Assembly: GCA_026397045.1 (NCBI GenBank)
Contig: JAPLVO010000008.1
Coordinates: forward strand, 20,850 to 84,849
From: Patescibacteria group bacterium
GTDB lineage: Bacteria; Patescibacteriota; Saccharimonadia; CAILAD01; BJGX01
DNA: 64,000 bases
Reading direction: 5' to 3'
The notes under the pieces are model-generated. The model ran no database searches. It had not been told where the DNA came from and saw only the letters and a list, made by a program, of their open reading frames with translations. Below, in pieces: positions 11,320-58,941 of the stretch. Numbering within the stretch: position 1 is the stretch's first letter; each line of letters opens with the position of its first letter. The position numbers were made by a program, and so were the translations under genes.

Positions 11320-11348
11320 TTGACCGTAACTAGTATAAATGATATAAT
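11320..11348 (+). promoter_or_regulatory. consensus sigma-70-type promoter (TTGACC-17 nt-TATAAT)
   Basis: TTGACC at 11320-11325, a 17-nt spacer, TATAAT at 11343-11348. Sits about 55 nt upstream of the 11403 start. Confidence 0.4.
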
Positions 11349-11402: not shown

Positions 11403-12419
11403 ATGACTAAATATACTTCTCAACAGCTTAATACCCTCGTAGACGATGCTCTAGGTAGCCTTAAAAAAGACCGTGATAAGGAAGTCCTTCGGAGGCGTGG
11501 GGGTATTAATGTCGAGGCTCAGACGCTCGAACAGATTGGCCGAGATCTTAATATTACTCGAGAAAGGGTTCGTCAGATAGAAAAGGCGGCCCTTATTAAG
11601 ATTAGGGAGCTAAATAACCATGATTATGATTTTTCCAGGTCTATCATGGAGATATTATCGCAAAAAGGTGGGCTTGTAAGCCTGATGAGTGTAAATACCG
11701 AACTTGGGCTTGACCACACAAGAGAGCCTCAAGCTATATTTCTTATCAGGACCAACCCTTCGATGCTGTTTATTGACCGTAACGACCACCACCTGCGCAT
11801 CGTAGGTGATTCTTCGGTATTCACTCAAGAAAAGATTAAAGATGCCCATGATGCCCTCGTAGAAGTAATCAGGCAAAATGGTAAGCCAGCCAAGTTTGCC
11901 AGTATTTACAAGCTGATAGATGGTCCACACAGCGAAGATAGCCTGGCTGAGCTAGCTAAAGCTTCGAACTATCTAGCCGAGCTGGATGGTAGCTGGGGCC
12001 TAACTAGCTGGCCAGAGGTAAACCCAAAAAGTATTCGAGACAAAATATACCTTGTACTAAAAAAGGTGGGGCGCCCGATGCATTTCTCCGATATTGCTGA
12101 AAAAATTTCTTATTTAGCTGCTAACCCTAAAAAGGTGACTACCCAGGCTGTACACAATGAACTTATTAAAGACAAAAGATTTGTGTTGATAGGTCGTGGC
12201 ATCTATGCATTAGCAGAATGGGGCTACCGATCGGGCACTGTTGCTGATATCATAGAGGAGATCCTTAAAGAAGAGGCTGGACCTCTCAATAAAGATGAAA
12301 TTGTAAAGCGAGTTCTTGCAAGGCGTCAAGTAAAGACGACTACTATAGTCCTAAATCTTCAAGAAAAGCCACAATTTAAGAGAGTAAAAAAGGGCGTCTA
12401 TACTCTTACTAGTAGCTAA
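11403..12419 (+). CDS. sigma-70 region 4 (HTH) + C-terminal HARE-HTH-like winged-helix protein
   Basis: N-terminus VLRRRGGINVEAQTLEQIGRDLNITRERVRQIEKAALIKIRE is a textbook sigma region 4. Regions 1-3 are absent. The C-terminus HFSDIAEKI...GRGIYALAEWGY resembles the HARE-HTH of RNA polymerase delta. Confidence 0.55.
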   Translation: MTKYTSQQLNTLVDDALGSLKKDRDKEVLRRRGGINVEAQTLEQIGRDLNITRERVRQIEKAALIKIRELNNHDYDFSRSIMEILSQKGGLVSLMSVNTELGLDHTREPQAIFLIRTNPSMLFIDRNDHHLRIVGDSSVFTQEKIKDAHDALVEVIRQNGKPAKFASIYKLIDGPHSEDSLAELAKASNYLAELDGSWGLTSWPEVNPKSIRDKIYLVLKKVGRPMHFSDIAEKISYLAANPKKVTTQAVHNELIKDKRFVLIGRGIYALAEWGYRSGTVADIIEEILKEEAGPLNKDEIVKRVLARRQVKTTTIVLNLQEKPQFKRVKKGVYTLTSS

Positions 12420-12471: not shown

Positions 12472-15144
12472 ATGGAAATAATAATCAACATAATTACAAC
12501 TCTAGCCCAAACCATAGGAATTATCCTTTTCCAGTTTTGGGGCTGGGTTTTTATTGCCGGCTGGTTGGCCTATCAAATTTACTCTAATAATAAAAAAATC
12601 GCCTACATCGATCGAATCGACCATACATTATTACAAATCATAGTGCCCAAAGACAACGAAAAGAGTGAATTATCTGCCGAGCAGCTGTTTGCGAGTCTGC
12701 ATGGAATATTAAAACCAATCAAAGAAGATTCAGCCATTCAAGAGCACATTAGCTTCGAGATAGTTAGCCACGATCACCTCATATATTTTTATGTATGGTG
12801 TCCTAGGCACCTAAAGGACTATGTAGAGAGTCAAATATATGCTCAATACCCATTAGTCCAGATAACCGAAATGGATAAAGATTATAGTAAAAAGGACTTA
12901 TTGGGTCGAACCGCCTTTACGACAGAGGTTGTACTGGTTAAAAATCAAATCTTCCCTATAAAAACATTCGCAACATTCGAGGTTGACCCTTTAGCAGGGC
13001 TAACTACTGTACTGTCGAGTCTTGGTGATAGCGAAGAAATTTGGATTCAAATGCTACTGGAACCAGTCGATGACAGCTGGCATAAGGCATCTTTAGCCTA
13101 TGTAGATGAAGTCAAGAATGGAAAGAAGTTAGGACTATCGGACGATTTACGCAACAAGTCCTTGAAGGCTCCCGGAAAACTAATCAGCAGCTTGGTCTCC
13201 GCTGCTTTTACGCCTGAAACATACCGTGAAAATTCATCGGCAAAGAGTAAAGGTGGTGATAAAAAAGAATTATCTCCAGGGCAGACCACACTTTTGGCGG
13301 CCGTTGAAGCAAAAGCAGAGAAGCTAGGCTATGGGGTTAAGATACGAGTATGCTATATTGGCCAAAATCCAGCGGCTGCAAAGCAACGCTTGCAGGCTCT
13401 GGTTGGTGGCTTTAAGCAATTCAATACAGTCAATTTGAATGGTTTTGGTGGAACCCAAATGGTTGAGGGGACGGATGGGCTAGAAGACTACCAATCGAGA
13501 AAATTCGAAGACGATGGCTACATACTAAATATCGAAGAGGCGGCTAGTATATTTCATTTGCCCCACACCAGCGTGGAGACCCCCAATATAGCCTACACCT
13601 CGACCAAAGTAGGGGAGCCGCCCGCGGGACTACCAACCCTAAATAACACTAAAGCCGAAGACCTAAGCCTGTTTGGCAGCACTACTTTTAGGCAGGGGAA
13701 TATAAAATTCGGAATTAAAAGAATAGACCGCGAGAGGCACCTCTATATTATTGGAAAGAGTGGAGTCGGAAAATCATTTATGCTTAACTTGCTGACTCTG
13801 AGTGATATATATCAAAATGAAGGCTTCGCGGTAGTGGACCCACATGGGGATTTTGCACAAGACATTATGAAGTTTATACCTGAGAATCGAATCAAAGATG
13901 TTATCTACATCAACCCAGATGATTCCAACTTCCCCGTAGCATTTAACCCCATGGAGTACACGGATGAAAATCGGCGAAATAATATAGCCTCCGAAATAGT
14001 TGGTGTACTAAAAAAGATGTTCGGAGATAGCTGGGGTCCTAGACTAGAGCATATTTTGAGGTTTACTCTATTGGCATTACTAGAGACACCCGACACAACA
14101 ATGCTAGGCATTACCCGAATGTTAACCGACAAAAACTACCGCAAAACGATTGTGGATAACATATCTGATCCTATCGTGAAAGCCTTCTGGGTTACAGAGT
14201 TCGCTAGCTGGAACGATAAATTTGCCTCAGAAGCTGTTCAGCCAGTCCTCAACAAAGTTGGGGCCTTCACTGCTGTGCCGATCGTTAGAAATATTATCGG
14301 CCAGCCTAAGAGCTCATTTTCATTCAGAGAAGCTATGGATAATGGCAAGATAATTATTGTCAATTTAAGTAGGGGCTTAATTGGTGAGGACAACGCCGCA
14401 ATATTAGGTTCACTAATTATTACCAAAATCCAACTCGATGCCATGAGTAGATCTGATATAAAAAATGTTGCTGATCGAAGGCCATTCTACCTATATGTAG
14501 ATGAGTTTCAGAATTTTGCGACCGAGTCTTTTGCCGTCATATTATCCGAAGCCCGAAAGTATGGCCTAAGATTGACAGTAGCTAATCAGTACATCTCGCA
14601 GATGCCTGATGAAGTTAGGGACGCGGTGTTTGGCAATGTTGGCTCAATGGTAACCTTCCGTGTTGGTGCTGATGACGCCGACTACCTATCAAAGTACTTT
14701 GAGCCGGTATTTGAGCCTAAAGACCTTGTAAACCTTGATAAGCGAGATATATATGTATCTATGAGCATTGGCGGACAAACCTCTAATGCGTTTAGTGCCA
14801 AGAGCCTAAATATGCCAACTCCACAATATGATCATACCCAAGCAATTATAGAAAACTCGCGAGAGAATTACTCTTTGAAGAGGGCAGATGTAGAGGCTCT
14901 AATCGCAAACTGGGTATCCCCGGAAAGTCCCAAGGGAAATGAATCTAATGGCAAACCACAGTTGACTGGAGGCAATAGTGCTAATCCCGTCGCTAACACA
15001 GCTTCTGCTAAGCCTGCTCAGATAAGGCCAGAAATAAGCGGCGTAGAGCCCAAAAAATATAGTGAGCTGATTAAAAGCAAGCCTAATACTAATCGCAAAA
15101 GATACAACAATAGCAACAAGTATAAGAGTAATAAGTCATATTAG
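12472..15144 (+). CDS. membrane-anchored VirD4/TraG/HerA-superfamily (AAA_10-like) P-loop ATPase; possible type IV coupling protein
   Basis: Two N-terminal TM helices. Walker A YIIGKSGVGKSF, then VVDPHGDF. Walker B FYLYVDEFQNF. ARKYGLRLTVANQYISQM and FGNVGSMVTFRVGADDADYLS motifs typical of T4CP/HerA. Basic low-complexity C-terminal tail. Confidence 0.55.
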   Translation: MEIIINIITTLAQTIGIILFQFWGWVFIAGWLAYQIYSNNKKIAYIDRIDHTLLQIIVPKDNEKSELSAEQLFASLHGILKPIKEDSAIQEHISFEIVSHDHLIYFYVWCPRHLKDYVESQIYAQYPLVQITEMDKDYSKKDLLGRTAFTTEVVLVKNQIFPIKTFATFEVDPLAGLTTVLSSLGDSEEIWIQMLLEPVDDSWHKASLAYVDEVKNGKKLGLSDDLRNKSLKAPGKLISSLVSAAFTPETYRENSSAKSKGGDKKELSPGQTTLLAAVEAKAEKLGYGVKIRVCYIGQNPAAAKQRLQALVGGFKQFNTVNLNGFGGTQMVEGTDGLEDYQSRKFEDDGYILNIEEAASIFHLPHTSVETPNIAYTSTKVGEPPAGLPTLNNTKAEDLSLFGSTTFRQGNIKFGIKRIDRERHLYIIGKSGVGKSFMLNLLTLSDIYQNEGFAVVDPHGDFAQDIMKFIPENRIKDVIYINPDDSNFPVAFNPMEYTDENRRNNIASEIVGVLKKMFGDSWGPRLEHILRFTLLALLETPDTTMLGITRMLTDKNYRKTIVDNISDPIVKAFWVTEFASWNDKFASEAVQPVLNKVGAFTAVPIVRNIIGQPKSSFSFREAMDNGKIIIVNLSRGLIGEDNAAILGSLIITKIQLDAMSRSDIKNVADRRPFYLYVDEFQNFATESFAVILSEARKYGLRLTVANQYISQMPDEVRDAVFGNVGSMVTFRVGADDADYLSKYFEPVFEPKDLVNLDKRDIYVSMSIGGQTSNAFSAKSLNMPTPQYDHTQAIIENSRENYSLKRADVEALIANWVSPESPKGNESNGKPQLTGGNSANPVANTASAKPAQIRPEISGVEPKKYSELIKSKPNTNRKRYNNSNKYKSNKSY

Positions 15145-15454
15145 AAAGTAGGCTCTTTTGCCTACGCAAAAGGTATAAAGAGCAGTACTGAGACACCTTA
15201 ATTAGGATATTTTATTGTGTCGCACAATATATCTTTTGCGACATGCGCAATATATTTACAGTAATTTAACGAATATTTTTTATATCCTGATATTATATCC
15301 ATTTGATAATTAGATATTTATTATCCACCATTCCCCTGTTTCCACTAATAGGGGCCGGGTGCCGTGAGACTGAGCATTCATGATGTATAGTTAATATAGC
15401 TAGTATTTAGCAATAAACAAAAACCGAACATAGGAGAGCGTTGAATAGTTACTA

Positions 15455-17433: not shown

Positions 17434-18577
17434 AGACCTCCTTATATGTATATTTAGAAATATTCTGCAAGATACCAATTCCTCCCAATAAAGCTACTAG
17501 GCTGGTTCCGCCATAGCTTACAAAGGGCAATGGTATGCCAGTCAACGGTATAATATTAAGCATAGCAGATATATTAATTATCGACTGAAAACCGATCCAG
17601 CAGCTTATACCTATGGCCAATAACCTACCAAAGTTATCTGGCGCCGACTTAGCTATTTTCACACCTCTCCAGACAAGAGCAGTGAAGACTACTATTATAC
17701 TACTAGTGCCAATCAAGCCAAACTCTTCGCCGATGATGGCAAAAATAGAGTCATTGGTGGCCTCTGGAAGGTAGCCGTATGCCTGAAGGCTTTTACCAAG
17801 GCCTCGGCCCAAAAAACCGCCACTGCCTAGGGCGATCAAGGCCTGGTTAATGTGATAGCCAGAACCTGCTGTATCATCGCTGGAGTTAAGAAATGTTGCC
17901 AACCTAGCTAACCTATATGGAGCGATTAAGATAAGTACCCCAGCACCACCGACTAGGCTTAATGCGGCAGCACTGAAATTCCATATAGGAACACCGGACA
18001 CCAAATACATAGATAGCATTGTCAAAATTATAACCATTGCACTGCCCATGTCTTTTTGTAAAAGAATTGCACTGGCTGCGACAAGTAGTATTAAGAACAT
18101 AAATGGCACCAGGCTTTCGAAGGGGCTCTTTAGTTTGTCTTTATTTTTGCTTAGCCAGGTTGCCATAAATATCACCGAGCCGACCTTCAAGAATTCTACT
18201 GGCTGGAAGTTGATAAAGCCTATTTTGACCCATCTAGTGGCACCACCGCTACTAACTGCAACCCCCGGAATAAGAACTAAGAACATCAGTGCGAAAGCTC
18301 CCCAAAATATCGGCGTGGCATATTTCTGCCAAAAATGGTAGTCGGTTTTAGCCGCTATGATCCAGGCGAATAATCCCACTACTAGCCCAGCCAGTTGCTT
18401 AAAGAAAAAAGAATTATTATCACTCTCGCCTGCAGTTTGCTTCAATATAGCAATCCACCCAGTAGAGAAAATCAAAATAAGACCAACGCCGACTAATATA
18501 CCTACTAATATGGTGAGTAAATAATCTGGTCGGTGCTTATAAAATATAGTTTTTTTTGTTTTATTTTTTGGTAGCAT
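17342..18577 (-). CDS. ftsW: SEDS-family peptidoglycan glycosyltransferase FtsW/RodA
   Basis: About 10 TM segments with the SEDS signature. Positioned between mraY and murG. Confidence 0.85.
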   Translation of the reverse strand: MLPKNKTKKTIFYKHRPDYLLTILVGILVGVGLILIFSTGWIAILKQTAGESDNNSFFFKQLAGLVVGLFAWIIAAKTDYHFWQKYATPIFWGAFALMFLVLIPGVAVSSGGATRWVKIGFINFQPVEFLKVGSVIFMATWLSKNKDKLKSPFESLVPFMFLILLVAASAILLQKDMGSAMVIILTMLSMYLVSGVPIWNFSAAALSLVGGAGVLILIAPYRLARLATFLNSSDDTAGSGYHINQALIALGSGGFLGRGLGKSLQAYGYLPEATNDSIFAIIGEEFGLIGTSSIIVVFTALVWRGVKIAKSAPDNFGRLLAIGISCWIGFQSIINISAMLNIIPLTGIPLPFVSYGGTSLVALLGGIGILQNISKYTYKEVYDEDTSSRGRNRRSHIASSSRNRIDSQAKS

Positions 18578-18588
18578 TCTTTAGTATC

Positions 18589-19614
18589 TTAGCCCTTACC
18601 GACTAAGCCAATCATCAGCCCTAAGCCGGCGCATACAGCGCCTATTATCCACAGCCTCATTGTGACTTTTGTCTCTGGCCAGCCAATTGCCTCTAGGTGA
18701 TGATGCAGCGGTGCCGAAATAAATATTTTTCGCTTAAATAGCTTCTTGGAAATAATCTGCACCAGGCTCGAGCCTGCCTCCATAACAAAGACAAAGCCAA
18801 TAATAGGAAGGACAAAAACAGAATTCGTCAGCATTGCTACCACTCCAAGAGCCGTTCCAAGGGCAAATGAGCCTATATCCCCCATGAAAAACCTAGCCGG
18901 GAATATATTAAACCAAGTATAGGCCAGCACAGCCCCTACTGTAGCTAGGCAGAACCCAGCTATCCCGATATTACCTTGGGCTAAGGCGATGATTCCAAAG
19001 GCCCCAAAGGATGCAGCTAAGAGGCCACCCGACAGACCATCTAGGCCATCGGTTATATTCACAGCATTAGATGTGGATACAATTACCAAAACAAAGAGCG
19101 GAATATAAAGAATTCCAATTTCGAAATCCCCGACTGCTGGGATATGGATCAGGCTATATTTGAGCCTATAATAGAAGTAAAGTGCACCAATAACTGCTAT
19201 GACCATTATTAGCAAGAACTTTATTGTTGATCTAAGACCAGCGACTCCTTTACCAGAACCTCTGATGTTGATAATATCATCAATCAAGCCGATTGACCCG
19301 GCCGATATGAGGCCAAATACTAAAAGATATGTTTGATTACGCGACCAATTCGTGAGTAAAGTAACTGCAGATATCGCAATAACTGTCACAATACCAGCCA
19401 TAGTGGGTATGTTTCTTTTGTGTTTGGCAGCATGGAGCCGGGCAAACACAGTGGCTTTCTCGCCAGTAGTAGCCGTGTCTCTAATTTGCTTCCAGAGTTT
19501 TAGCTTGAACGCAAAGTATGTATATACAGGAGTCAGGGCAATTGCTACGCCAAAACCCAGTGAGGCTTGAACCAAAAGTATAAGAAAGTTTTGGGTTAAT
19601 AGTTGGTCTGTCAT
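18589..19614 (-). CDS. mraY: phospho-N-acetylmuramoyl-pentapeptide transferase
   Basis: Polytopic membrane protein with MraY DD/DG motifs (NAVNITDGLDGL). Confidence 0.9.
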   Translation of the reverse strand: MTDQLLTQNFLILLVQASLGFGVAIALTPVYTYFAFKLKLWKQIRDTATTGEKATVFARLHAAKHKRNIPTMAGIVTVIAISAVTLLTNWSRNQTYLLVFGLISAGSIGLIDDIINIRGSGKGVAGLRSTIKFLLIMVIAVIGALYFYYRLKYSLIHIPAVGDFEIGILYIPLFVLVIVSTSNAVNITDGLDGLSGGLLAASFGAFGIIALAQGNIGIAGFCLATVGAVLAYTWFNIFPARFFMGDIGSFALGTALGVVAMLTNSVFVLPIIGFVFVMEAGSSLVQIISKKLFKRKIFISAPLHHHLEAIGWPETKVTMRLWIIGAVCAGLGLMIGLVGKG

Positions 19615-25978: not shown

Positions 25979-26710
25979 CTAAGCATGCAAAAGCTCAGTA
26001 CTTTCGGATATAACTTTGATACTCTTTATCTTTCGATCAAAGCTATATTGTAGATAGCCCAGCAGCAAGCTAAGCGACTCCACTAAAGTTCTATTTTCTA
26101 ACTTAAGACGAAGGCAGGTAGAGATATTGTAGTTCGTGCAAATACTCCATAGCTTTACGGCATCTGGGCTAATAACAATTGCATCAATATTAGTTTTACT
26201 GCTGGCGACTCTGCCGTCGGTCATATTAAAATAATACTTACTATGGCCTTCAATCCCCCTGATGTCTGGCGCTAAGCCTGAATACTTCATCATTCCTAAG
26301 AGCGCAAAAGTTGCTGTTAATAGCACATTACTGCCACTGCCTATCTCTTCTAAGGAGCTCTTGTAGCAGTGATAAAGAGTATTATTGGGCTGGGCTTCGA
26401 TGGTTATTAAGTCTAAGACCTCTGTAATTAGCAGGGCCATGAGCCTTGCTTCAAGCTTAGCTTCAAAAAAAATGTTTAATGCTTGTGTTCGCGCAGCAAC
26501 TAGCGTTGGCAGCTTACCTTTACCGATGTAGCTAAATCGAGTCTCCACTAGCGGCTCAGTATGAGCTTGGAGCTTGGCCCTAGGCTTCTTTATGCCCTTG
26601 GCTATAAGGCTAATTTTGCCCTGCTCTAGCGTAAAAATCACTATAATCCTATCATTATCCTTGAGGCTTCTGCGCGCTATCACATAGCCGGTGCAGTCAG
26701 ACTGCCTCAC
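25979..26710 (-). CDS. recO: DNA repair protein RecO
   Basis: N-terminal OB fold (GYVIARRSLKDNDRIIVIFTLEQGKISLIAKG). 243 aa. Confidence 0.7.
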   Translation of the reverse strand: MRQSDCTGYVIARRSLKDNDRIIVIFTLEQGKISLIAKGIKKPRAKLQAHTEPLVETRFSYIGKGKLPTLVAARTQALNIFFEAKLEARLMALLITEVLDLITIEAQPNNTLYHCYKSSLEEIGSGSNVLLTATFALLGMMKYSGLAPDIRGIEGHSKYYFNMTDGRVASSKTNIDAIVISPDAVKLWSICTNYNISTCLRLKLENRTLVESLSLLLGYLQYSFDRKIKSIKVISESTELLHA

Positions 26711-28499: not shown

Positions 28500-29030
28500 T
28501 TAATCTCCTGTTAAAATTGCTTGCCCTGGCTCCCAATCTATTGGACATAGGCCGCCAGTTTGCAGGGCCTGAACTACTCGCATTGTCTCGTCGACGCTAC
28601 GCCCGACATTACTATCTGAGAGTACCGCATACCTTAGCTTACCATCAGGGTCGATGATGAATGTACCTCTTTCGGATTCGCCATCTGCTTCATTTAGTAC
28701 TTCATAGGCAGTAGAGAGCTGGTGATTGGTATCGGCAAGGATAGGGAAATCGACATCTTTGAGGTCTCTCTCAAACCATGCTTTATGCGAATTAATACTA
28801 TCTGTACTCGCTGCTAAAATATAGGCATTGATCTTTTTAAATTCGGCACTCTTCTTGGCGAAACCCTCTATTTCTGTCGGGCAGACAAAGGTGAAGTCTC
28901 TGGGATAGAAAAATAGTACTACCCATTTACCTTTGTAGTCTTTCAGACTGATATCCTTGAAGTCTCCTTTGATGCCCTTCTGAAAGGCAGGCTGCTTAAA
29001 ATCTGGGGCTGGTTGGTTTAGTCTCAACAT
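28500..29030 (-). CDS. peroxiredoxin (AhpC/TSA family)
   Basis: Peroxidatic FTFVCPTEI motif. Confidence 0.85.
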   Translation of the reverse strand: MLRLNQPAPDFKQPAFQKGIKGDFKDISLKDYKGKWVVLFFYPRDFTFVCPTEIEGFAKKSAEFKKINAYILAASTDSINSHKAWFERDLKDVDFPILADTNHQLSTAYEVLNEADGESERGTFIIDPDGKLRYAVLSDSNVGRSVDETMRVVQALQTGGLCPIDWEPGQAILTGD

Positions 29031-29171
29031 TATTTTCTCCTTTAACTGATGATTAATTTAATATTTCCATTGCGACATCATAAGTGCCATTATTGTCTTA
29101 AATTACGATTAATAAAACTAATTACTTGTGTATGGGTTGTGTTTATATTGTACTACAGTAAGGACTTAAGC

Positions 29172-29654
29172 TCAAAATATATATATATTCGCTGGCCCGA
29201 TCTTTTGATCGATCTTCTTGCTTTCAAAGCTAAAGGCGTATGATATCACCACTGTTCCTGGTTTAAGTTCATTTTTGAACTTTTCATTTAAACGATGCAT
29301 ATAGGGGGCAGCCGAAAATATAAATACAACATCGGCCTTGGATAAATCAGCCTTCCAGTAATCGGTAATAACCACTTTCGCCTTTGGGTATTCACGCAAT
29401 CGGTATTTAGAGACCAGTGCAAGTACGGGATTGAGCTCATATCCAATGGCCTTATAACCGTGCTTGCTAGCCGACATTAGTACTCGTCCATCTCCACTGC
29501 CTAGGTCTACCACGGTGGACCCTTTTCTAATTTTAAGTACGGAGAATATGCCCTCTATAGCCTGATTATCTGTCGGAACAAAGGGGGCTCCGATAAACAC
29601 AATCATACCAAACGAAACAAATAGCAGTATAAGGAGTATCCAGATAATAATCAT
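29172..29654 (-). CDS. class I SAM-dependent methyltransferase with N-terminal TM segment
   Basis: VVDLGSGDGRVLM glycine-rich motif I. Confidence 0.55.
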   Translation of the reverse strand: MIIIWILLILLFVSFGMIVFIGAPFVPTDNQAIEGIFSVLKIRKGSTVVDLGSGDGRVLMSASKHGYKAIGYELNPVLALVSKYRLREYPKAKVVITDYWKADLSKADVVFIFSAAPYMHRLNEKFKNELKPGTVVISYAFSFESKKIDQKIGPANIYIF

Positions 29655-29663
29655 TACAAAATT

Positions 29664-30137
29664 CTACCCGTTTACTTTTAGCCAGCTTATCACTTCGGGT
29701 ACTGTCTTGAGTGGTTGAATTTTAGGCCACATTGCTATGATCTTTAAATCTGGGCCCAACATAACCGCAGATCGCTGAGTACCAAAGAATTTACGCCCAT
29801 ACATGCTCCGCTCCTGCCAAGCTCCATAGGCCTCTATCATTTCATGCTCAGGATCAGCCAAAATATCAAAGGGCAAATGGTGATTTTGTTTGAATTTAAA
29901 ATGGCTAGCAGCACTGTCTTTACTAACCCCAACCACATCTACCCCTAAGGCCTGTAGTTCTTCAAAATGATCTCGCAGCGAACAGGATTGCGCCGTGCAG
30001 CCTGGAGTTTCGTCCTTTGGATAAAAATAAATCAAAGTCGTCTTACCCTTCAAGCTATCTAGGGTATGAGTCTTGCCATCCTGGTCTTGGATATTAAATA
30101 CTGGTGCCTTATCGCCTACCTTAAGTTCCATCTGCAC
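29664..30137 (-). CDS. bcp: thiol peroxidase Bcp (atypical peroxiredoxin)
   Basis: PGCTAQSC active site. Confidence 0.8.
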   Translation of the reverse strand: MQMELKVGDKAPVFNIQDQDGKTHTLDSLKGKTTLIYFYPKDETPGCTAQSCSLRDHFEELQALGVDVVGVSKDSAASHFKFKQNHHLPFDILADPEHEMIEAYGAWQERSMYGRKFFGTQRSAVMLGPDLKIIAMWPKIQPLKTVPEVISWLKVNG

Positions 30138-30158: not shown

Positions 30159-30881
30159 TTACTGTTTAGGCCTGAGGTACTGGTCCCAGTAATGAAACAA
30201 CTTTGCAGTTGCGAATAGGTCCTCGGCATTGTATTTAGCAATCTCAATATTTTTACCTTCTAAATAGGCTGGCCCTACATCACTTCCGTCCATCCCAGAT
30301 TCTTTAGGGCTCTTGATGCCAAATGCCCGGCACCATCGGTGCAGGCTGCCTTTGAACATGGCGCCACCATAAAAAGTCAGTAGATCAAATAAATCGTGAT
30401 GGGTAGCCCCCCTGAGGCCCTTAGAGTTGTATCTATTACTTACGAGGTCCTTGCTTGGCCTGATGCCGTGTACAGCAGAGCGAACCATCATATATGGCAC
30501 ATCTGCGCGACGCCCAAAAAAGCTAATAAACTCATCGGTGATTTCTGCTAGCCCCCAAAATTTAGTAAGCATCTCGGCTTCATCCATTGCGACATATTTA
30601 ATTCCGTTTTCTTCTACATCATCGGCTTTCTTGCCTGCATTGTCATAATATACAGCGCCCTTCTCTTCATCAATATCATATACCCCAATAGCCACTATTT
30701 TACCCGTGAGAGGGCTAAATACTAGGTTTTGCTTAAGGTCTTTAAGTGCCCGTTCGTAGCCGTCAGGGTCTTTTTTGGGATCAGGCAATTTTTTGCTAAG
30801 GTCTTTTTTGGTGGCATCGTCGAACTTATCGAAATCCTCACCAACCATCTCTATGTCAAATACTAATCTTTTTTTATTCAT
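30159..30881 (-). CDS. RNase H-like 3'-5' exonuclease (PolB-exonuclease-like DEDDy)
   Basis: LVFDIEM ... YNAEDLFATAKLF (Y-x3-D). The start at 30881 is chosen to avoid overlapping the helicase. Confidence 0.45.
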   Translation of the reverse strand: MNKKRLVFDIEMVGEDFDKFDDATKKDLSKKLPDPKKDPDGYERALKDLKQNLVFSPLTGKIVAIGVYDIDEEKGAVYYDNAGKKADDVEENGIKYVAMDEAEMLTKFWGLAEITDEFISFFGRRADVPYMMVRSAVHGIRPSKDLVSNRYNSKGLRGATHHDLFDLLTFYGGAMFKGSLHRWCRAFGIKSPKESGMDGSDVGPAYLEGKNIEIAKYNAEDLFATAKLFHYWDQYLRPKQ

Positions 30882-30897
30882 TTTTGTATTATAACAG

Positions 30898-30935
30898 AAA
30901 CAAACACCTGACAGTAATTGCTCAGGTGTTTGTTT
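30898..30935 (-). terminator. 14-bp perfect inverted repeat between the helicase stop and the exonuclease start
   Basis: AAACAAACACCTGA-(10 nt)-TCAGGTGTTTGTTT. Only about 14 nt separate it from the next ATG. Confidence 0.45.
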
Positions 30936-30972
30936 ATAAAATGTTGCTTCGCCCAATTGGACGACTCGATAG

Positions 30973-32190
30973 TTAACCAGCGATGAAGGTAAGCGCCTTA
31001 CCGGTCTTGCCAGCTCGTCCAGTTCGGCCAATTCGGTGTATGTAGTCCTCATAGTTATTAGGCTGATCGAAGTTAATAACATGACTAACATTAGGTATAT
31101 CTAGGCCACGGGCTGCTACATCGGTAGCTACTAATATACCTACCTTGCCGTCCTTAAAGGCGCGCAGTGCGCGCTGGCGCTGAGGCTGGGATTTGTTGCC
31201 ATGAATAGCTTCTGCTGGCAATCCTGCCCTAGTTAAGCTATCAGCAAGCTTTTGGACCCCAAATTTAGTCTCGCCGAATACTAGCACCTTCTCGAAATCC
31301 TCGGAACTAAGTAGGTCATTGAGTATTTGTATTTTTGCTTCCTTAGAGCCAGCCCTAACTACATCTTGCTCGATGTGCTCGCTAGTTTCACGAGTACGAA
31401 CTGATATTGTAACTGGGTCTTTAAGCATTGAATCTAGCAAAAACTGAATTTGCGGAGTAATAGTAGCGCTAAAACATAGCGATTGGCGCTCGCTAGGTAG
31501 CTCGGCCAAGATTTCTTTGATGTCTGGCAAAAATCCCATATCTAGCATTCTGTCGGCCTCATCAAGTACCAAAGTGGTTACAAATTGCAGCTTCAGCTCG
31601 CGTTTTTGCATGAGATCTTTTAGCCGGCCTGGTGTGCCGATAATAAACTGCGGGCGACGACGCAAGTCGCGGATTTGCTTCTGCATGTTAACACCGCCAA
31701 CGCATATTGCCGAGTAAAGATTAAGATTTGTAGCGAACGATTTGAACTCTTCATCGATTTGCATCGCTAGCTCTCGGGTCGGTGCCATAATAAGCACGGC
31801 CTTTTGGCCAGGATTAGTTTTGATCCTATTAATAATCGGTAGCACGAAAGCAGCAGTTTTGCCGGTACCAGTATTGGCTAGGCCAATTACATCTCGACCT
31901 TCAAGGATTGGCTTAATAGCTCCATCTTGAATAGCTGTTGGGTACTCGTGGCCTTTTTTGGTGATATTGGCCTGCAAATCGGCTACAAAACCGAAGTCGC
32001 TAAATTTGTGAACTGGCACAAACTCAACCCTGTCGATTTTTTCGACTGCTTTATTGATATATTTAGTGGGGTCAATGTAAGCCTTACCCCGGTTGTTTCT
32101 GCGGTTGTTGCCTCGGCTATTTGAGCCAAAGGACCGCGATTGGTTACCGCCTCGTTTAGAACGAGAAGCGGAAAAAGATCTGTATGCCAT
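30973..32190 (-). CDS. DEAD-box ATP-dependent RNA helicase with RG/RN-rich N-terminal tail
   Basis: Q motif, Walker A GTGKT, DEAD (VLDEADRMLDMGF), SAT and HRIGRTGR motifs. Confidence 0.9.
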   Translation of the reverse strand: MAYRSFSASRSKRGGNQSRSFGSNSRGNNRRNNRGKAYIDPTKYINKAVEKIDRVEFVPVHKFSDFGFVADLQANITKKGHEYPTAIQDGAIKPILEGRDVIGLANTGTGKTAAFVLPIINRIKTNPGQKAVLIMAPTRELAMQIDEEFKSFATNLNLYSAICVGGVNMQKQIRDLRRRPQFIIGTPGRLKDLMQKRELKLQFVTTLVLDEADRMLDMGFLPDIKEILAELPSERQSLCFSATITPQIQFLLDSMLKDPVTISVRTRETSEHIEQDVVRAGSKEAKIQILNDLLSSEDFEKVLVFGETKFGVQKLADSLTRAGLPAEAIHGNKSQPQRQRALRAFKDGKVGILVATDVAARGLDIPNVSHVINFDQPNNYEDYIHRIGRTGRAGKTGKALTFIAG

Positions 32191-34019: not shown

Positions 34020-35294
34020 TTATAAATACTTATTTAGGCTATTCACATACTTAATAATACTTGCATTGCCAGATCTATTAGCGTACATCTGCATGTTGCC
34101 AATAATTTTGCGATTAGCCTTTATGTCTTCTGCAGTATCAAGCTTACCTAGTTTTTTCTGTTCTTGCGAAAACAAACCTGCGTAACATTTTTTAACTGCA
34201 TCATGCTCACCAATCTCCCCAAAAGCTTTTAGCGCAGTATAATAGTCCCCTTTAGAGAAATAATATGCACCCTTGTTGTGATATATAGAATTATTAAGTT
34301 TAGCCCGATCAAGGGAATACTGGGCGAAGTTGAGGGCTTTTTTGTATTCGTTTCCTCGCATAAAATAAATTGCACCATTGTGGCCAGCCATATGAATAAG
34401 CTTAGGCTCATCGCTTTGTTTGGCGTACTTTAGGGCCTTAGCGTAGCTAGAACTGCCACAAAAATCTACCACGACATTATTATAGGCAGCTGCCAGGTTC
34501 TTTTCGACAATGTCGCGCTGACTACTGAGTATGTAGGCAATACGGGCAGACTCTAGCAGTGACTCGGCAGAAACATCGTGGGTCTTAAAATATTGGTCGC
34601 TAACATCAAGTAGATTTATACTTACAATCTCTTCGATAGGTAATAAATTCTGGTTAGGCTTTTTGTAGTTAGCGAAAGTTCCACTGGTGGCCTCAATATC
34701 AGCGCCCTTAAAATGCAGTGCGACATGACCCGGATAAGTCTTTATTTCTAGGTCCTTAATATCATGTCTTAGCGAATAAAGGTGTATATATAATGTAACA
34801 ATTTGGTTGCAATCACCCTCCAGCATATTTTTGCCCGGATCCTTCAAGAGTTCTCCAAAAGTACAAGATTTGCGGTATTTGTAGCGCCCAGCATGCGGGG
34901 ACAAGTATGACATTATACTGCGCAGGTATTGCAGCTGCTCAGCATGCTCGGAGAGATTTTTGCTATCTATGCCAGCTGCACTAATCTCGGCCAAGACTTG
35001 ATCTACAGAATGTTTGTTTTTAGACAAATAAATCTCAAAGCTGCTGGCAATGGCCAGAGAGTTATTATAGAGCTCGCGCCTTTTTGCTTTTTTTAGGTAT
35101 TTATAGCCGCGGTATTTGAATTCACTCCAAAGATTAATACCTATAATGTTGTTTTGCAAGAACCAGTCTAGATCTTTCCTGATATCATCTTTAGTTTGGT
35201 GCTCATCTAGCTTGGCAAAAAACTTAGCCACCCTGCGCTCGCTAGGGTCAGTGTTATTACTAAATAAATAAAATATTTTTTGAAAAATGTTCAT
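34020..35294 (-). CDS. hypothetical protein with TPR/Sel1-like repeats
   Basis: C-terminal half shows an A/Y/G-rich helical-repeat pattern. No catalytic motif. Confidence 0.35.
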   Translation of the reverse strand: MNIFQKIFYLFSNNTDPSERRVAKFFAKLDEHQTKDDIRKDLDWFLQNNIIGINLWSEFKYRGYKYLKKAKRRELYNNSLAIASSFEIYLSKNKHSVDQVLAEISAAGIDSKNLSEHAEQLQYLRSIMSYLSPHAGRYKYRKSCTFGELLKDPGKNMLEGDCNQIVTLYIHLYSLRHDIKDLEIKTYPGHVALHFKGADIEATSGTFANYKKPNQNLLPIEEIVSINLLDVSDQYFKTHDVSAESLLESARIAYILSSQRDIVEKNLAAAYNNVVVDFCGSSSYAKALKYAKQSDEPKLIHMAGHNGAIYFMRGNEYKKALNFAQYSLDRAKLNNSIYHNKGAYYFSKGDYYTALKAFGEIGEHDAVKKCYAGLFSQEQKKLGKLDTAEDIKANRKIIGNMQMYANRSGNASIIKYVNSLNKYL

Positions 35295-35340: not shown

Positions 35341-35811
35341 CTACAGCAGCTTCTTGATATCGTCTTCCATTTTGATTGGTTCTAGATTGCTAGCAAATCG
35401 GGCTACGACATTACCTTCTCTATCAATCAAAAACTTTGTAAAGTTCCATTTTATGGCACTTAGTAAGCCGCCTTTTTGTTTTTTTAGGTATTTATACAGA
35501 GGGTCGGCATTTTTGCCGTTGACATCAATCTTTGCGAAAGTCTCAAAAGTTGTTTTATAGCGCATGGCGCAAATATTGGCTATTTCTTCGTCTGATTCTG
35601 GAGCCTGATTGGCAAATTGATTGCAGGGAAAATCTAGAATCTCTAGGCCGTCTTTGTGGTATTTTTTATATAGCTTCTCTAGGCCTTCATATTGAGGGGT
35701 AAAGCCACAGTGAGTCGCGGTGTTGACTATAAGTAGTACCTTGCCGCGGTATTTAGTCATCTCTTGCATCTTGCCATCTACTTGCTTGATCTTATAGTCA
35801 TATATACTCAA
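35341..35811 (-). CDS. glutathione peroxidase family (Cys-type)
   Basis: NTATHCGFT and FPCNQFANQ motifs. Confidence 0.85.
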   Translation of the reverse strand: MSIYDYKIKQVDGKMQEMTKYRGKVLLIVNTATHCGFTPQYEGLEKLYKKYHKDGLEILDFPCNQFANQAPESDEEIANICAMRYKTTFETFAKIDVNGKNADPLYKYLKKQKGGLLSAIKWNFTKFLIDREGNVVARFASNLEPIKMEDDIKKLL

Positions 35812-35916
35812 AATATTTAGTTCCTTGTTTACTTGTTATAGTTCTATTTTACTACACTTGGCTGTGTTTTAGATGCCTAAATACAAATGGCTTTGCTATA
35901 ATAGCAGTCATATATC

Positions 35917-36696
35917 ATGATAATTTTACTTCACTCATCTAAGACAATGAAGGCCACCAAGCTAGTAGGGCTAGAGCTATCTAAGCCGGCGCTGGCGGCT
36001 CAAGCTCAAGAGCTAGGGGTCTATTTGGCGAGCTTAAAGCTCGGAGAGATTCAGGCCGTCATGGGGGTTTCTGGCAATCTGGCTCAAGAAATCATGACCA
36101 CAGCTAGTAGCTGGCCAGCTGCTCAAGACAAGGGCTCAGCCCTGCATAGCTTTCGGGGGGATGTTTTTAGTGGCTTGCAGGTGGCAAGCTTTGATAAAAA
36201 AGATCTAGCATATGCCAACCAACACCTCAAAATAATTTCTGGCCTGTATGGCCTTTTGCGGCCGCTTGATGCCGTGTCGCCTTATCGGCTAGAGATGGGC
36301 TACAAGCTGATTCGCGAGCCCTTCACCAGCTTGTATAAGTTCTGGAGTGATACGCTAGCCAAGCTACTACCAGCAGGCCAGCCAATTGTTAATTTGACTT
36401 CTCTAGAGTATGGGCGGGCCATTGTGCCTTATCTAGACAAGAGCTTAGTCATAAGCCCGCGATTTTATACATACAACGCCAAGGCTCGTCAGTACACCAG
36501 CGTAGCCGTGCATTCTAAAATAGCCCGCGGGGCCTTTGCGCACTGGCTTATAACTAAACGCATCAATAAGGTTTCAGAGCTAACTAATTTTGATGAGATC
36601 GGCTATAGGTATGAGGCCTCGCTAAGCACCCCACTGGCGCCAGCCTTTGTGTGTCGTGATTTTATGGGCAAAGGGCTGAGTGTTAGGCTGGGTTAA
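35917..36696 (+). CDS. yaaA: peroxide stress protein YaaA (UPF0246)
   Basis: N-terminal MIILLHSSKTM. Length and pattern match the YaaA family. Confidence 0.75.
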   Translation: MIILLHSSKTMKATKLVGLELSKPALAAQAQELGVYLASLKLGEIQAVMGVSGNLAQEIMTTASSWPAAQDKGSALHSFRGDVFSGLQVASFDKKDLAYANQHLKIISGLYGLLRPLDAVSPYRLEMGYKLIREPFTSLYKFWSDTLAKLLPAGQPIVNLTSLEYGRAIVPYLDKSLVISPRFYTYNAKARQYTSVAVHSKIARGAFAHWLITKRINKVSELTNFDEIGYRYEASLSTPLAPAFVCRDFMGKGLSVRLG

Positions 36697-50298: not shown

Positions 50299-50483
50299 CC
50301 TCCGATGCTTTAAATTTAATGTGCATGATTACCAAACAAAAAGCCCCCGGTAATAAACCTAGGACCTTAAAGTTTGAAAATCTATTGTTAGATTTGTAAC
50401 CTCATGTAGCGAATTAAGTCATTTAGACTGCTACAGTCTTTGGTAATCGATATTATTATAGCAGCTTAGCGGTGAATATTCAA
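50299..50483 (-). promoter_or_regulatory. rplJ 5' leader (possible L10 autoregulatory leader)
   Basis: 185-nt untranslated spacer upstream of rplJ. Inferred from the conserved L10-leader position only. Confidence 0.25.
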
Positions 50484-56334: not shown

Positions 56335-56339
56335 TGCTA

Positions 56340-57410: not shown

Positions 57411-57411
57411 A

Positions 57412-58911: not shown

Positions 58912-58941
58912 TATTTAGTGAATATATAATATAATAATACT

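Follow-up and report, generated by a model that had tools for sequence, protein, structure and literature searches.

A chromosomal DUF8128-bearing ATPase of Saccharibacteria as a candidate domesticated conjugative coupling protein

Introduction

Patescibacteria (CPR) comprise a large part of bacterial diversity and live on other bacteria, with which they exchange macromolecules. Their type IV secretion system (T4SS) is essential, and the coupling protein-like (T4CP-like) family occurs in about 96% of their genomes, more than VirB4, in counts that pool paralogs. In particular, T4CP-like genes were reported in 2,918 of 3,035 Patescibacteria genomes and VirB4 in 2,417 of 3,035 (Quinonero-Coronel et al., 2025; PMC12102498). 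In the parts of that paper considered here, the VirD4-like genes are described as lying far from virB4, only 148 of 5,713 T4CP-like genes being near it, and as possibly "exapted". Since the published counts pool several paralog families, the excess of T4CP over VirB4 may not hold for the gene type described below.

In Southlakia epibionticum ML1 the T4SS cluster (SEML1_0006-0019) adjoins dnaA and, according to the published passages considered here, contains no recognizable coupling protein. Saccharibacteria encode their true VirB4 in a separate gene, SEML1_0008 in this strain. Tn-seq in co-culture classified the T4SS genes as essential (ES) and the VirD4-like gene SEML1_0293 as non-essential (NE); mutant reads of the latter drop about fourfold during outgrowth. 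The SEML1_0293 family was flagged as "core" and "Patescibacteria-enriched" (Wang et al.). Thus, the core observation of a non-essential VirD4-like gene located away from virB4 is already contained in the 2025 paper (PMC12102498), as far as its passages considered here go.

Here we describe an ortholog of SEML1_0293 in Saccharibacterial (Patescibacteria/CPR) DNA, analyzed as a single 64-kb stretch (hereafter the window). The passages of PMC12102498 and of the Southlakia T4SS paper considered here do not mention DUF8128, plasmid relatives or a sigma-r4/HARE cassette, and our literature search retrieved no paper on DUF8128 or on HARE-HTH in connection with Patescibacteria. What is new in this work is the kinship of the DUF8128-ATPase with plasmid coupling proteins, the VirB4-like fold predicted for its N-terminal domain and its conserved sigma-r4/HARE partner.

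Results

Structure and conservation of the 890-aa protein

The following features were assigned to the gene:

12472..15144, plus strand: DUF8128/coupling-protein-type ATPase ORF, 890 aa, ATG start, ortholog of Southlakia SEML1_0293
12472..12579, plus strand: N-terminal hydrophobic helix, putative membrane anchor, residues 1-36, followed by a basic NNKK cluster
12619..13656, plus strand: DUF8128 (PF26449) alpha/beta domain, residues about 50-395 (precomputed Pfam, AF2)
13663..14916, plus strand: coupling-protein-type nucleotide-binding domain, residues 398-815 (TrwB_AAD_bind, Foldseek match to TrwB)
13753..13776, plus strand: Walker A, GKSGVGKS, residues 428-435; G428, G431, G433 and K434 invariant in 50 homologs
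13966..14298, plus strand: predicted all-alpha insertion of seven helices, residues about 499-609 (AF2/DSSP), corresponding to the TrwB all-alpha domain
14485..14508, plus strand: Walker B strand and catalytic acid, FYLYVDEF, residues 672-679; F672 to F679 invariant in 50 homologs
14917..15141, plus strand: K-, N- and S-rich basic C-terminal tail, predicted to be disordered, residues 816-890, net charge +9

The ORF is real and strongly conserved. The identical protein was found on four independent metagenome contigs, a database homology search returned more than 6,500 homologs, and relatives are encoded in at least 595 species-representative genomes. The earlier note had described an ORF with Walker A/B and coupling-protein motifs, and this description was borne out: besides the Walker motifs (Walker B also being given as YVDEFQNF from residue 675), the protein contains ARKYGL at 694, ANQY at 704, FGNVG at 720 and TFRVG at 728, and the motif residues are mostly invariant in an alignment of 50 homologs with 55-99% identity. 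GC content and skew of the window show no anomaly.

The two transmembrane helices and long soluble spacer proposed earlier for the N-terminal part needed correction. Hydropathy windows above 1.6 are confined to residues 1-33, and the hydrophobic stretch of about 35 residues is uninterrupted; AF2 models it as a single helix at 2-48, and in the membrane it may form either one TM helix or a tight hairpin of two. F20, G24 and W25 within it are invariant in the 50 homologs. The supposed spacer is a conserved alpha/beta domain of about 350 aa, PF26449 (DUF8128), predicted to be folded, with an AF2 pLDDT of about 85-90 outside a putatively disordered loop at 221-263. The PF26449 match is precomputed on exactly this protein and on every listed homolog; our copy of Pfam lacked PF26449, and the N-terminal region searched alone therefore gave no match. 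A profile that we built from this region finds 3,561 representative clusters, and the taxonomy of the distant DUF8128 proteins was taken from a further homology search.

The helices of the modelled all-alpha insertion (DSSP) are located at 499-520, 523-537, 545-552, 554-563, 567-577, 582-601 and 603-609. The lysine-rich tail noted earlier was also confirmed: it contains 11 K and 3 R versus 5 E and is probably disordered (pLDDT below 50 for 821-890). The tails of homologs are 59-168 aa long with a median net charge of +6.5. SEML1_0293 of Southlakia (921 aa) has the same Pfam positions (PF10412 at 402-719).

Relationship of the ATPase domain to known families

The profiles place the ATPase in the coupling-protein lineage. 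TrwB_AAD_bind (Pfam) matched residues 420-731 with 40.5 bits (cutoff 20.5; 2e-10) and TraG-D_C (Pfam) gave 25.9 bits (cutoff 22; 1e-5), while T4SS-DNA_transf scored exactly at its cutoff (20.1 bits). DUF87 (25.4 bits, cutoff 23.2; 1.7e-5) covered residues 421-496 only, around the P-loop. AAA_10 remained below its cutoff (22.6 versus 27.5 bits) and CagE_TrbE_VirB did not match. The profile check suggested in the earlier note thus places three coupling-protein profiles at or above their cutoffs and AAA_10 below. That note had called the protein VirD4/TraG/HerA-like and named FtsK-family membership with a gamma domain as the finding that would speak against it; none of the FtsK family profiles (FtsK_SpoIIIE, FtsK_alpha, gamma domain) matched at E up to 1, and the protein belongs to the VirD4/TrwB coupling-protein lineage.

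None of the curated equivalogs of NCBIfam was reached. VirB4 equivalogs scored at most 21 bits (cutoffs above 260), the best T4CP equivalogs were conju_CD1115 with 40.8 bits (cutoff 250) and SXT_TraD with 34.5 (cutoff 366), and HerA_antiphage gave 13 bits (cutoff 800). By profile, the protein is a member of the T4CP superfamily but of no curated equivalog family.

TrwB was also the best PDB sequence match of the ATPase, with only about 17-19% identity. In Foldseek comparisons of the predicted model, TrwB structures gave TM scores of 0.64-0.70 normalised to TrwB, with rmsd of about 4-5 A over 411-466 columns. These model-based alignments span almost whole TrwB chains (411-427 aa), and the all-alpha insertion lies within both them and the TrwB_AAD_bind match. 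The structural match of the model to HerA was weaker (TM 0.5).

DUF8128 and VirB4

Foldseek comparison of the DUF8128 model with PDB suggested a likeness to another T4SS component. The top 13 matches were all VirB4/TrwK, with probability 0.87-1.0 (12 of the 13 at 0.97 or higher) and TMq 0.26-0.42. Solved structures resembling the predicted domain are thus VirB4 chains only, at their N-terminal domain, as judged from one model (pLDDT 73) at moderate TM. For the full-length model, too, VirB4 chains had the best E-values. At the sequence level, hhalign revealed no profile tie of DUF8128 to the VirB4 N-terminus or to TrsD, and the N-domain profile matched no PDB sequence.

Relatives on plasmids

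A tblastn search against plasmids returned 710 records, aligned to residues about 49-784 of the query. In BLASTP, a Shouchella clausii plasmid protein (WP_248290882) is 25% identical over 776 columns (E 1e-56) covering both domains. Other plasmid relatives include WP_144625398 (Bacillus subtilis NRS6116_2), WP_331738717 (Embleya linear plasmid) and a Haloterrigena "VirD4" together with its upstream ORF. With our N-domain HMM, the plasmid proteins gave E-values of 3e-23, 1e-19 and 8e-8, and a haloarchaeal ORF consisting of this part alone gave 6e-24. Judging by tblastn, BLASTP and HMM, the region described in the earlier note as a spacer is a domain that also occurs in plasmid conjugative coupling proteins.

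The Bacillaceae and actinobacterial plasmid genes adjoin Replic_Relax relaxases and AAA_10 VirB4-type ATPases; on bacterial plasmids the DUF8128-ATPase is thus placed as conjugative coupling proteins are. Tcp or PrgI genes adjoin it on some plasmids. On a haloarchaeal plasmid, DUF8128 and the ATPase are separate adjacent genes beside a VirB4-like gene.

Genomic neighbourhood

Upstream of the ATPase gene the window contains dprA, topA and a sigma-r4/HARE-HTH gene, and downstream a convergent ftsQ-murG-ftsW-mraY-PBP-mraW-mraZ cluster. Other features of the region are:

11320..11348, plus strand: candidate promoter of sigma-70-like type, TTGACC-17-TATAAT plus TG, immediately past the topA stop and ahead of the unit formed by the two genes
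11403..12419, plus strand: 338-aa protein with N-terminal sigma-70 region 4 and central RNAP-delta-like HARE-HTH, ortholog of SEML1_0294
15148..15165, strand unassigned (reported on the minus strand): short GC-containing hairpin, 6-bp stem, 4 nt past the stop
25979-26710, minus strand: recO, not linked to the ATPase gene
40497-41096, minus strand: recR, not linked to the ATPase gene

The putative promoter is the best of the region, with 11 of 12 consensus matches, and is a consensus match only; over the whole scan, such sites were no commoner than in shuffled sequence. The hairpin, a possible terminator, lies within the 310 nt that separate the ATPase gene from the convergent ftsQ.

VirB, relaxase and integrase families were not found among the larger ORFs of the 64-kb window, four of which had no Pfam match, in agreement with the earlier description of housekeeping neighbours without such genes. 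With phmmer, no relaxase, VirB4 or Tcp homologs were detected within 10 kb in 85 Saccharibacterial loci, and no VirB4, relaxase, PrgI or Tcp homologs in 165 related loci, including 80 Parcubacteria-type loci within 8 kb. The same synteny recurs in dozens of Saccharibacterial species. Given this stable synteny, the invariant catalytic motifs and the lack of nearby relaxase, VirB4 and Tcp genes, the gene is chromosomal and vertically inherited and does not belong to a mobile element, as the earlier note had argued against a conjugative element. Its term "orphan" holds only locally: Saccharibacterial relatives carry a T4SS cluster elsewhere (the dnaA-adjacent one in Southlakia).

The link to dprA-recO-recR proposed earlier was not upheld: recO and recR lie 11-25 kb away on the opposite strand, and the flanks in Parcubacteria-type loci are SecDF and EF-P. 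A functional tie to the dcw cluster, topA or dprA was likewise rejected, these being Saccharibacteria-specific neighbours.

A sigma-r4/HARE-HTH partner conserved across the phylum

The 338-aa protein matches the Pfam families Sigma70_r4 (1.2e-11) and HARE-HTH (1e-10) and, in PDB, region 4 of SigA/RpoD (1e-8); its match to RNAP delta (TIGR04567; 1.8e-10, 40.9 bits) is just below the cutoff of 42. Although regarded earlier as a housekeeping neighbour, its gene turned out to be the sole partner conserved across the phylum: it immediately precedes the ATPase gene, in the same orientation, in 52 of 74 loci from Saccharibacteria and in 53 of 61 Parcubacteria-type loci. DUF8128 and the ATPase are fused in Saccharibacteria and encoded by two separate genes in the Parcubacteria-type lineages. 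No such partner was found in the plasmid loci of DUF8128 coupling proteins. In Southlakia SEML1_0294 is essential (ES), which differs from SEML1_0293, and the adjacency could reflect co-expression alone. It should be mentioned that an apparent sigma-r4/HARE-ATPase fusion in one locus (L015) is an artefact of a masked run of N joining the two ORFs.

Discussion

Our best explanation, to which we give about an even chance, is that the protein is a conjugative coupling protein (T4CP, VirD4/TrwB lineage) of a DUF8128-bearing sub-type which has been domesticated on the chromosome and acts as an accessory translocase. A rival reading, possible but rather doubtful, is that the Saccharibacterial T4SS uses it as its classical coupling protein, with the gene merely set apart from the virB4 cluster; it would recruit protein effectors or DNA, feed them into the channel and be functionless without the system. 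The homology of both domains to conjugative T4CPs fits this, as do the reported distances of T4CP genes from virB4 (in the passages of PMC12102498 considered here) and the Southlakia cluster with no recognizable coupling protein of its own in its published description; the VirB4-like fold predicted for the N-domain could also dock on the T4SS inner-membrane complex. Pilus formation in model systems does not require VirD4, which would account for a non-essential T4CP beside an essential T4SS. However, from the published counts, as given in the part of the source considered here, at least 501 of 618 Patescibacteria genomes without detected VirB4 keep a T4CP-like gene. Moreover, the T4SS genes are unlinked in the 165 loci while the sigma-r4/HARE gene is linked phylum-wide, and a second T4CP-like paralog of Southlakia, SEML1_0142, is essential and thus a better candidate partner for an essential T4SS. 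The unlinked loci, the contrast between non-essential SEML1_0293 and the essential T4SS and the published counts together suggest that the ATPase is not obligately tied to the T4SS.

Quite unlikely is a role as the cytoplasmic-membrane motor for DNA uptake in transformation, in which it would substitute for the missing ComFA alongside ComEC and DprA. Saccharibacteria are naturally competent via ComEC, dprA lies 4 kb upstream in conserved order, a text search of the Southlakia annotations returned ComEC and a ComF-family (ComFC-like) protein but no ComFA, and a membrane-anchored ATPase akin to DNA translocases would suit the task; but the Parcubacteria-type cassette, flanked by SecDF and EF-P, lacks dprA-topA, recO and recR are unlinked, and no competence system is known to use a T4CP. 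Proximity to the dcw cluster (in 36 of 61 Saccharibacterial loci the gene and ftsQ-murG-ftsW run towards each other) and membership of the same ATPase superfamily might suggest an FtsK/SpoIIIE-like chromosome-segregation translocase. This reading is effectively refuted by the missing FtsK profile matches and by the lack of the dcw neighbourhood in other lineages, and replacement of FtsK is rejected because Southlakia also encodes a distinct FtsK, SEML1_0096, which is essential and has a gamma domain. Plasmid-type descent and the loss of relaxase and VirB4 neighbours could also mark a decaying, now functionless remnant of an integrated conjugative element. We strongly disfavour this and hold it to be extremely improbable: the frame is intact, none of the catalytic residues varies among more than 50 species whose proteins are 55-99% identical, relatives are widespread in stable synteny, GC and skew are unremarkable, the family is "core" and its mutants lose reads.

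Under the preferred reading of a domesticated coupling protein, the ATPase, anchored in the cytoplasmic membrane by its N-terminal helix, would assemble there into an ATP-driven hexameric translocase. The HTH partner would bring it to a nucleic-acid or nucleoprotein substrate, which it would move at the membrane and, where a T4SS is present, may hand over via the VirB4-like N-domain. Its contribution would be accessory, and the essential T4SS would not require it. DNA uptake, DNA export and effector translocation, as proposed earlier, are possible activities.

A bolder proposal, which we consider improbable, is that sigma-r4/HARE-HTH, the membrane-anchored DUF8128 and the T4CP-type ATPase form a Patescibacteria-wide, T4SS-independent machine coupling an RNA-polymerase or DNA-binding factor to a membrane translocase. 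If true, a conjugation motor would have been put to a new use here: the machine might import host nucleic acid (RNA or DNA) needed by nucleotide auxotrophs, or instead export or partition nucleic acid. It would also be a candidate for the nucleic-acid uptake route discussed in recent Patescibacteria papers; a preprint on host-RNA feeding names no motor protein. Domestication, the VirB4-like domain and the cassette with an essential partner turn the annotation "orphan VirD4-like" into testable hypotheses, and Southlakia, which is genetically tractable, carries both SEML1_0293 and SEML1_0294. The layout of DUF8128 plus ATPase may also inform the relationship between VirB4 and VirD4.

Comparison with known systems

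The Southlakia locus has the same gene order as the window (dprA, topA, sigma-r4/HARE-HTH gene, ATPase), but SEML1_0293 is followed by a GNAT gene and a CRISPR-Cas9 locus instead of the dcw cluster. Compared with TrwB, VirD4, TraD and TraG, the protein has about 350 extra residues (DUF8128) between anchor and ATPase and a basic C-terminal tail, with no relaxosome genes close by; a P-loop domain with an all-alpha insertion and an N-terminal membrane anchor are shared with TrwB. In VirB4 (TrwK of R388), too, the C-terminal ATPase is preceded by an alpha/beta domain at the N-terminus, but the ATPase domain studied here is nearer to TrwB than to VirB4. The plasmid relatives stand beside conjugation genes, whereas the window gene is chromosomal with no relaxase close by. 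The N-terminal helix that anchors the window protein in the membrane is missing from the Bacillaceae versions. In their ATPase, the plasmid relatives have the same TrwB-type core as the protein described here.

Motifs and Domain Structure of the ATPase

The gene studied and its upstream neighbor, which encodes a sigma-70 region 4/HARE-HTH protein (sigma-r4/HARE-HTH), are located in the window as follows:

12472-15144, + strand: ORF with an ATG start, encoding the 890-aa ATPase
11403-12419, + strand: ORF encoding the 338-aa sigma-r4/HARE-HTH protein

An identical 890-aa protein is encoded on four independent metagenome contigs, and a homology search revealed more than 6,500 relatives which, where the organism was named, belonged mostly to Candidatus Saccharibacteria/Patescibacteria. 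Therefore, the window is derived from the chromosome of a Saccharibacterium (CPR). Its GC content is even (about 0.37-0.46), and no island signature was detected in the GC profile across the window.

All coupling-protein motifs listed in the earlier note were located in the protein, and when 50 homologs (55-80% identical to the query) were aligned, most of the motif residues proved invariant. Pfam analysis revealed TrwB_AAD_bind (2e-10 over residues 420-731), TraG-D_C, DUF87 and T4SS-DNA_transf, and no match to the FtsK family; VirD4/TraD-type conjugation ATPases of NCBIfam matched weakly, below the threshold. By sequence, the best solved relative was TrwB. The motifs and the parts distinguished in an AlphaFold2 model (50 homologs as input, mean pLDDT 80) are:

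Residues 2-48: long N-terminal helix (AlphaFold2)
Residues about 50-395: alpha/beta domain (DUF8128) with a disordered loop at 221-263 (AlphaFold2)
Residues 398-815: P-loop domain (AlphaFold2)
Residues 499-609: seven-helix insertion within the P-loop domain (AlphaFold2)
Residues 821-890: disordered C-terminal tail (AlphaFold2)
Residues 428-435: Walker A, GKSGVGKS
From residue 675: Walker B, YVDEFQNF
Residues 694, 704, 720 and 728: ARKYGL, ANQY, FGNVG and TFRVG, respectively

The N-terminus contains one hydrophobic stretch of ~35 residues, modelled as a single helix; the two transmembrane helices proposed earlier could not be distinguished in it. The supposed long soluble spacer behind it proved to be a conserved folded domain, which precomputed Pfam labels assign to PF26449 (DUF8128). 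The C-terminal tail contains 11 K, 11 N, 11 S and 3 R and has a net charge of +9.

In a Foldseek search of the PDB, TrwB superposed on the ATPase half of the predicted model over 411-466 alignment columns, approximately the full length of the TrwB chain (TM 0.64-0.70 normalised to TrwB, rmsd about 4-5 A), while the best E-values of the 890-aa model belonged not to TrwB but to full-length VirB4 (TrwK of R388). When the N-domain was modelled separately (residues 44-396, pLDDT 73), the top 13 matches were all VirB4/TrwK chains (probability 0.87-1.0, with 12 of 13 at >=0.97; E 3e-5 to 3e-3; TM 0.26-0.42 normalised to the query) and the remainder was noise. At the sequence level, the N-domain profile found nothing in the PDB, and hhalign found no similarity of this domain to pSK41 TrsD or to a plasmid VirB4. 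Thus, a TrwB-type ATPase is preceded by the DUF8128 domain, and the models moderately support the view that the only structural relatives of the latter are VirB4 chains, at their N-terminal domain. As computed, the protein combines a membrane anchor, this N-domain, an intact TrwB-like NTPase with an all-alpha domain, and a basic disordered tail.

Genomic Context in the Window

The genes upstream of the ATPase ORF encode EngA, Pth, DprA, TopA and the sigma-r4/HARE-HTH protein, and the convergent genes downstream encode FtsQ-MurG-FtsW-MraY-PBP-MraW-MraZ. The remaining larger ORFs of the 64 kb encode tRNA synthetases, DnaB, a clamp-loader subunit and ribosomal protein L1; further ORFs encode peroxiredoxins, glycosyltransferases and a carotenoid-type cluster. 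Among the larger ORFs scanned across the window, none matched a VirB, relaxase or integrase family, which bears out the earlier description of a housekeeping neighborhood. As the earlier note had it, the ATPase is a genuine and conserved member of the VirD4/TrwB lineage encoded among housekeeping genes. The presumed closeness to recO and recR did not hold, since both genes are in the window but 11-25 kb away and on the opposite strand.

The sigma-r4/HARE-HTH and ATPase ORFs are 52 nt apart, and the site scan revealed no terminator-like site between them. The best promoter-like site of the region lies just 5' of the sigma-r4/HARE-HTH gene (11320..11348, + strand; 11/12 matches plus TG), in a scan that overall gave no more sites than shuffled sequence. 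Co-transcription of the two genes is plausible.

Four ORFs of 253-424 aa had no Pfam match at E 0.01 and may encode divergent surface or T4SS-like components:

34020-35294 (-)
54192-55460 (-)
61572-62411 (-)
63035-63796 (-)

The carotenoid-type cluster (55495-61550), located within a reduced CPR genome, encodes a phytoene/squalene synthase, a polyprenyl synthase, an amine-oxidase/phytoene-desaturase-like enzyme and a UbiA prenyltransferase fused to a GT2 glycosyltransferase, and contains two small overlapping ORFs (58942-59256 and 59249-59557). It is similar to actinobacterial loci for glycosylated or C50 carotenoids; Saccharibacteria usually have actinobacterial hosts. Oxidative-stress genes (two AhpC/TSA peroxiredoxins, a glutathione peroxidase and the YaaA peroxide-stress protein) are concentrated at 28500-30137 and 35341-36696. 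At 30159-32190 (-), a PolB-exonuclease-like ORF (DNA_pol_B_exo2) overlaps by ~120 nt the 3' end of a DEAD-box helicase ORF located upstream of it on the minus strand, which may reflect a mis-set start codon or coupled genes. An ordinary ribosomal protein L10 leader (Rfam RF00557, 55 bits) was found at 50328-50461 (-), 5' of the L10 and L7/L12 genes.

Distribution and Organization of the Cassette

Relatives of the ATPase are encoded in at least 595 genomes (one per GTDB species), nearly all labelled Saccharibacteria, and 81 of these loci were analyzed, with four copies of the window's own organism left out. In 52 of the 74 loci with sufficient flanking sequence, the sigma-r4/HARE-HTH gene immediately preceded the ATPase gene on the same strand (median gap 43 nt); convergent ftsQ lay downstream in 36 of 61. 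Divergent copies (45-51% identity) had variable contexts. Five loci contained two copies of the DUF8128-ATPase gene, either in tandem (L075, L080) or flanking the sigma-r4/HARE gene (L073, L076, L078). Homologs of VirB4, relaxase, PrgI or Tcp were found by phmmer in none of the analyzed Saccharibacterial loci.

An exhaustive search with the N-domain profile yielded 3,561 representative clusters, many of them comprising proteins of 420-480 aa that stop exactly at the start of the ATPase. Some of these short proteins, named Parcubacteria and Portnoybacteria by their sources, are encoded on long contigs and are therefore not truncated genes. We analyzed 80 metagenome loci of this Parcubacteria-type group, and the module was split in all 80; in 69 of them a separate T4CP-type (type IV coupling protein) ATPase gene followed the TM-DUF8128 gene within 400 nt. 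Among the 61 loci with enough flank, 53 carried a full-length sigma-r4/HARE-HTH ortholog directly upstream (medians: E 2e-82, 343 aa, gap 30 nt). The other neighbors differed from the Saccharibacterial ones: SecA, SecD and SecF upstream, and EF-P, MnmA and tRNA synthetases downstream.

On two long contigs, independently precomputed annotation gave the order SecD, SecF, Sigma70_r4/HARE-HTH, DUF8128, TrwB_AAD_bind ATPase. One of them (L172) encodes an ATPase with a treble-clef zinc finger at its C-terminus and, 8 kb away (18230-19266), a second, fused DUF8128-ATPase paralog. Such paralog pairs in some lineages are consistent with published data, according to which a genome contains about two T4CP-like genes on average. 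The split Parcubacterial ATPases (L109:9272-10855; L172:10263-11891) end in the treble-clef zinc finger PF23477, where the Saccharibacterial proteins have the basic disordered tail; the C-terminal module varies and may specify which partner or substrate is bound.

Since the same partner stands beside the fused (Saccharibacterial) and the split (Parcubacteria-type) forms, the sigma-r4/HARE-HTH gene is the sole constant neighbor across deep divergence and gene fission/fusion. Computationally, the ATPase belongs to a conserved cassette with this HTH protein, and linkage to relaxase or VirB4 was not detected in it. The N-terminus of the 338-aa partner is a sigma-70 region 4 (1e-8 to SigA region 4 in the PDB) and its middle part an RNAP-delta-like HARE-HTH (TIGR04567, 1.8e-10, just below the cutoff), without sigma regions 2 and 3. 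The protein is conserved in both Saccharibacteria and Parcubacteria-type lineages, with orthologs on comparison contigs L172 (7900-8988) and L173 (7881-8951) and in Southlakia epibionticum (SEML1_0294). In the Tn-seq tables for the latter, SEML1_0294 is annotated "RpoS", essential and distinct from RpoD (SEML1_0063) (PMC10633639). A literature search found no papers pairing HARE-HTH with Patescibacteria; the architecture and function of the partner appear to be undescribed.

Relatives on Conjugative Plasmids

A tblastn search of 72,556 plasmids with the 890-aa query matched 710 records (Bacillus 394, Streptomyces 123, Staphylococcus 26, Natrinema 13, Sulfolobus 12, Haladaptatus 11, and others). 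Many alignments spanned query residues about 49-784, that is, the N-domain and the ATPase, with 24-30% identity; a Shouchella clausii plasmid protein was 25% identical over 776 columns (BLASTP, E 1e-56). The Saccharibacterial N-domain HMM matched the N-termini of the plasmid proteins from Shouchella (3e-23), B. subtilis (1e-19) and Embleya (8e-8), and on a Haloterrigena plasmid it matched a separate 352-aa ORF (6e-24) directly upstream of the "VirD4" gene.

On the Shouchella and B. subtilis plasmids the DUF8128-T4CP gene is followed by a Replic_Relax-type relaxase, conjugal-transfer genes (TcpD/TcpE in B. subtilis) and a VirB4-type ATPase; in Shouchella the relaxase was confirmed as PF13814 and the VirB4-type ATPase as AAA_10 (1e-116). 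The order is PrgI, VirB4-like ATPase, DUF8128-T4CP, Replic_Relax relaxase, NlpC/P60 on the Embleya linear plasmid and VirB4-like ATPase, stand-alone DUF8128 ORF, VirD4 ATPase on the Haloterrigena plasmid. Thus, the contexts of the examined DUF8128 plasmid genes are conjugative, and genes of this kind are treated in the literature as VirD4-like coupling proteins.

It should be mentioned that an alphaproteobacterial plasmid, NZ_CP081110 of Sulfitobacter mediterraneus, encodes a 395-aa ATPase-only protein (99994-101181), in which the N-domain and TM helix are missing; its gene is bordered by transposase genes and a recombinase gene. With 38.7% identity (E 1e-86), this protein is more similar to the Saccharibacterial ATPase half than is any plasmid T4CP bearing DUF8128.

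Published Data and Possible Role

The Tn-seq tables for Southlakia epibionticum (Wang et al., 2023; PMC10633639) list the ATPase ortholog, SEML1_0293, as "core family" and "Patescibacteria enriched". The gene order matches that of the window: DprA (0298), TopA (0296), Sigma70_r4/HARE-HTH (0294), ATPase (0293). In the same tables SEML1_0293 is non-essential at all three time points, with normalized reads of 5817, 2940 and 1372 in succession. Also recorded there are a separate essential FtsK with the gamma domain (SEML1_0096) and a VirB4-like gene (SEML1_0008) within an essential T4SS cluster adjoining dnaA, which according to Wang et al. lacks a recognizable coupling protein. A second T4CP-like paralog, SEML1_0142 (1019 aa, "TraM recognition domain", P-loop 381-800), is listed as essential and is preceded by a small essential hypothetical gene (SEML1_0140-0142 region); SEML1_0142 may be the true partner of the essential T4SS.

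Quinonero-Coronel et al. (2025; PMC12102498) counted 5,713 VirD4-like homologs, distributed over 2,918 of 3,035 Patescibacteria genomes; just 148 of these homologs lie near virB4, and VirB4 was found in 2,417 genomes. Hence the core observation of the earlier note had been published: the "orphan" status of VirD4-like proteins in Patescibacteria is on record and the ortholog has Tn-seq data, so that the observation by itself is already known.

Three lines of evidence suggest that the ATPase is an accessory factor rather than an obligatory T4SS component: in Southlakia the ortholog is non-essential, with fitness declining modestly; by the published counts, a T4CP-like gene is retained in at least 501 of the 618 genomes in which VirB4 was not detected; and the ATPase gene is linked to the HTH gene, not to T4SS genes. 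We give about even chances to a domesticated coupling-type translocase that works in the cassette and is not obligately bound to a T4SS; a strictly classical role as a T4SS coupling protein seems less likely. A competence motor is possible, as no ComFA is annotated in Southlakia, but the linkage to dprA stops at Saccharibacteria. The lack of an FtsK-family Pfam match and the presence of a dedicated FtsK in Southlakia effectively exclude an FtsK-like function, and a decaying remnant is effectively excluded as well.

As a domesticated translocase, the protein would assemble, as other T4CPs do, into a hexamer bound to the membrane and driven by ATP; the HTH partner would recruit it to a nucleic-acid or nucleoprotein substrate, which would be translocated at the membrane and possibly handed to a T4SS through the VirB4-like domain. 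The main value of these data is that they make specific experiments possible in a tractable organism, Southlakia. Judging from the literature searched, three findings appear to be new: the association with the sigma-r4/HARE-HTH gene in a phylum-wide cassette, whether fused or split; the predicted resemblance of the DUF8128 fold to VirB4 chains; and the occurrence of DUF8128 also in coupling proteins encoded on plasmids of monoderms and archaea.

The computations show that the protein descends from conjugative coupling proteins or is akin to them. No sigma-r4/HARE neighbor was found in the plasmid loci examined, and the Bacillaceae plasmid versions, unlike the window protein, lack the N-terminal membrane helix. 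Given the homology over both domains and the conjugative contexts, the window protein is a chromosomally encoded descendant, or a relative, of a coupling-protein sub-type with DUF8128 from monoderm and archaeal conjugation systems. Such kinship fits the published view that the Patescibacterial T4SS was derived from monoderm conjugation machinery.
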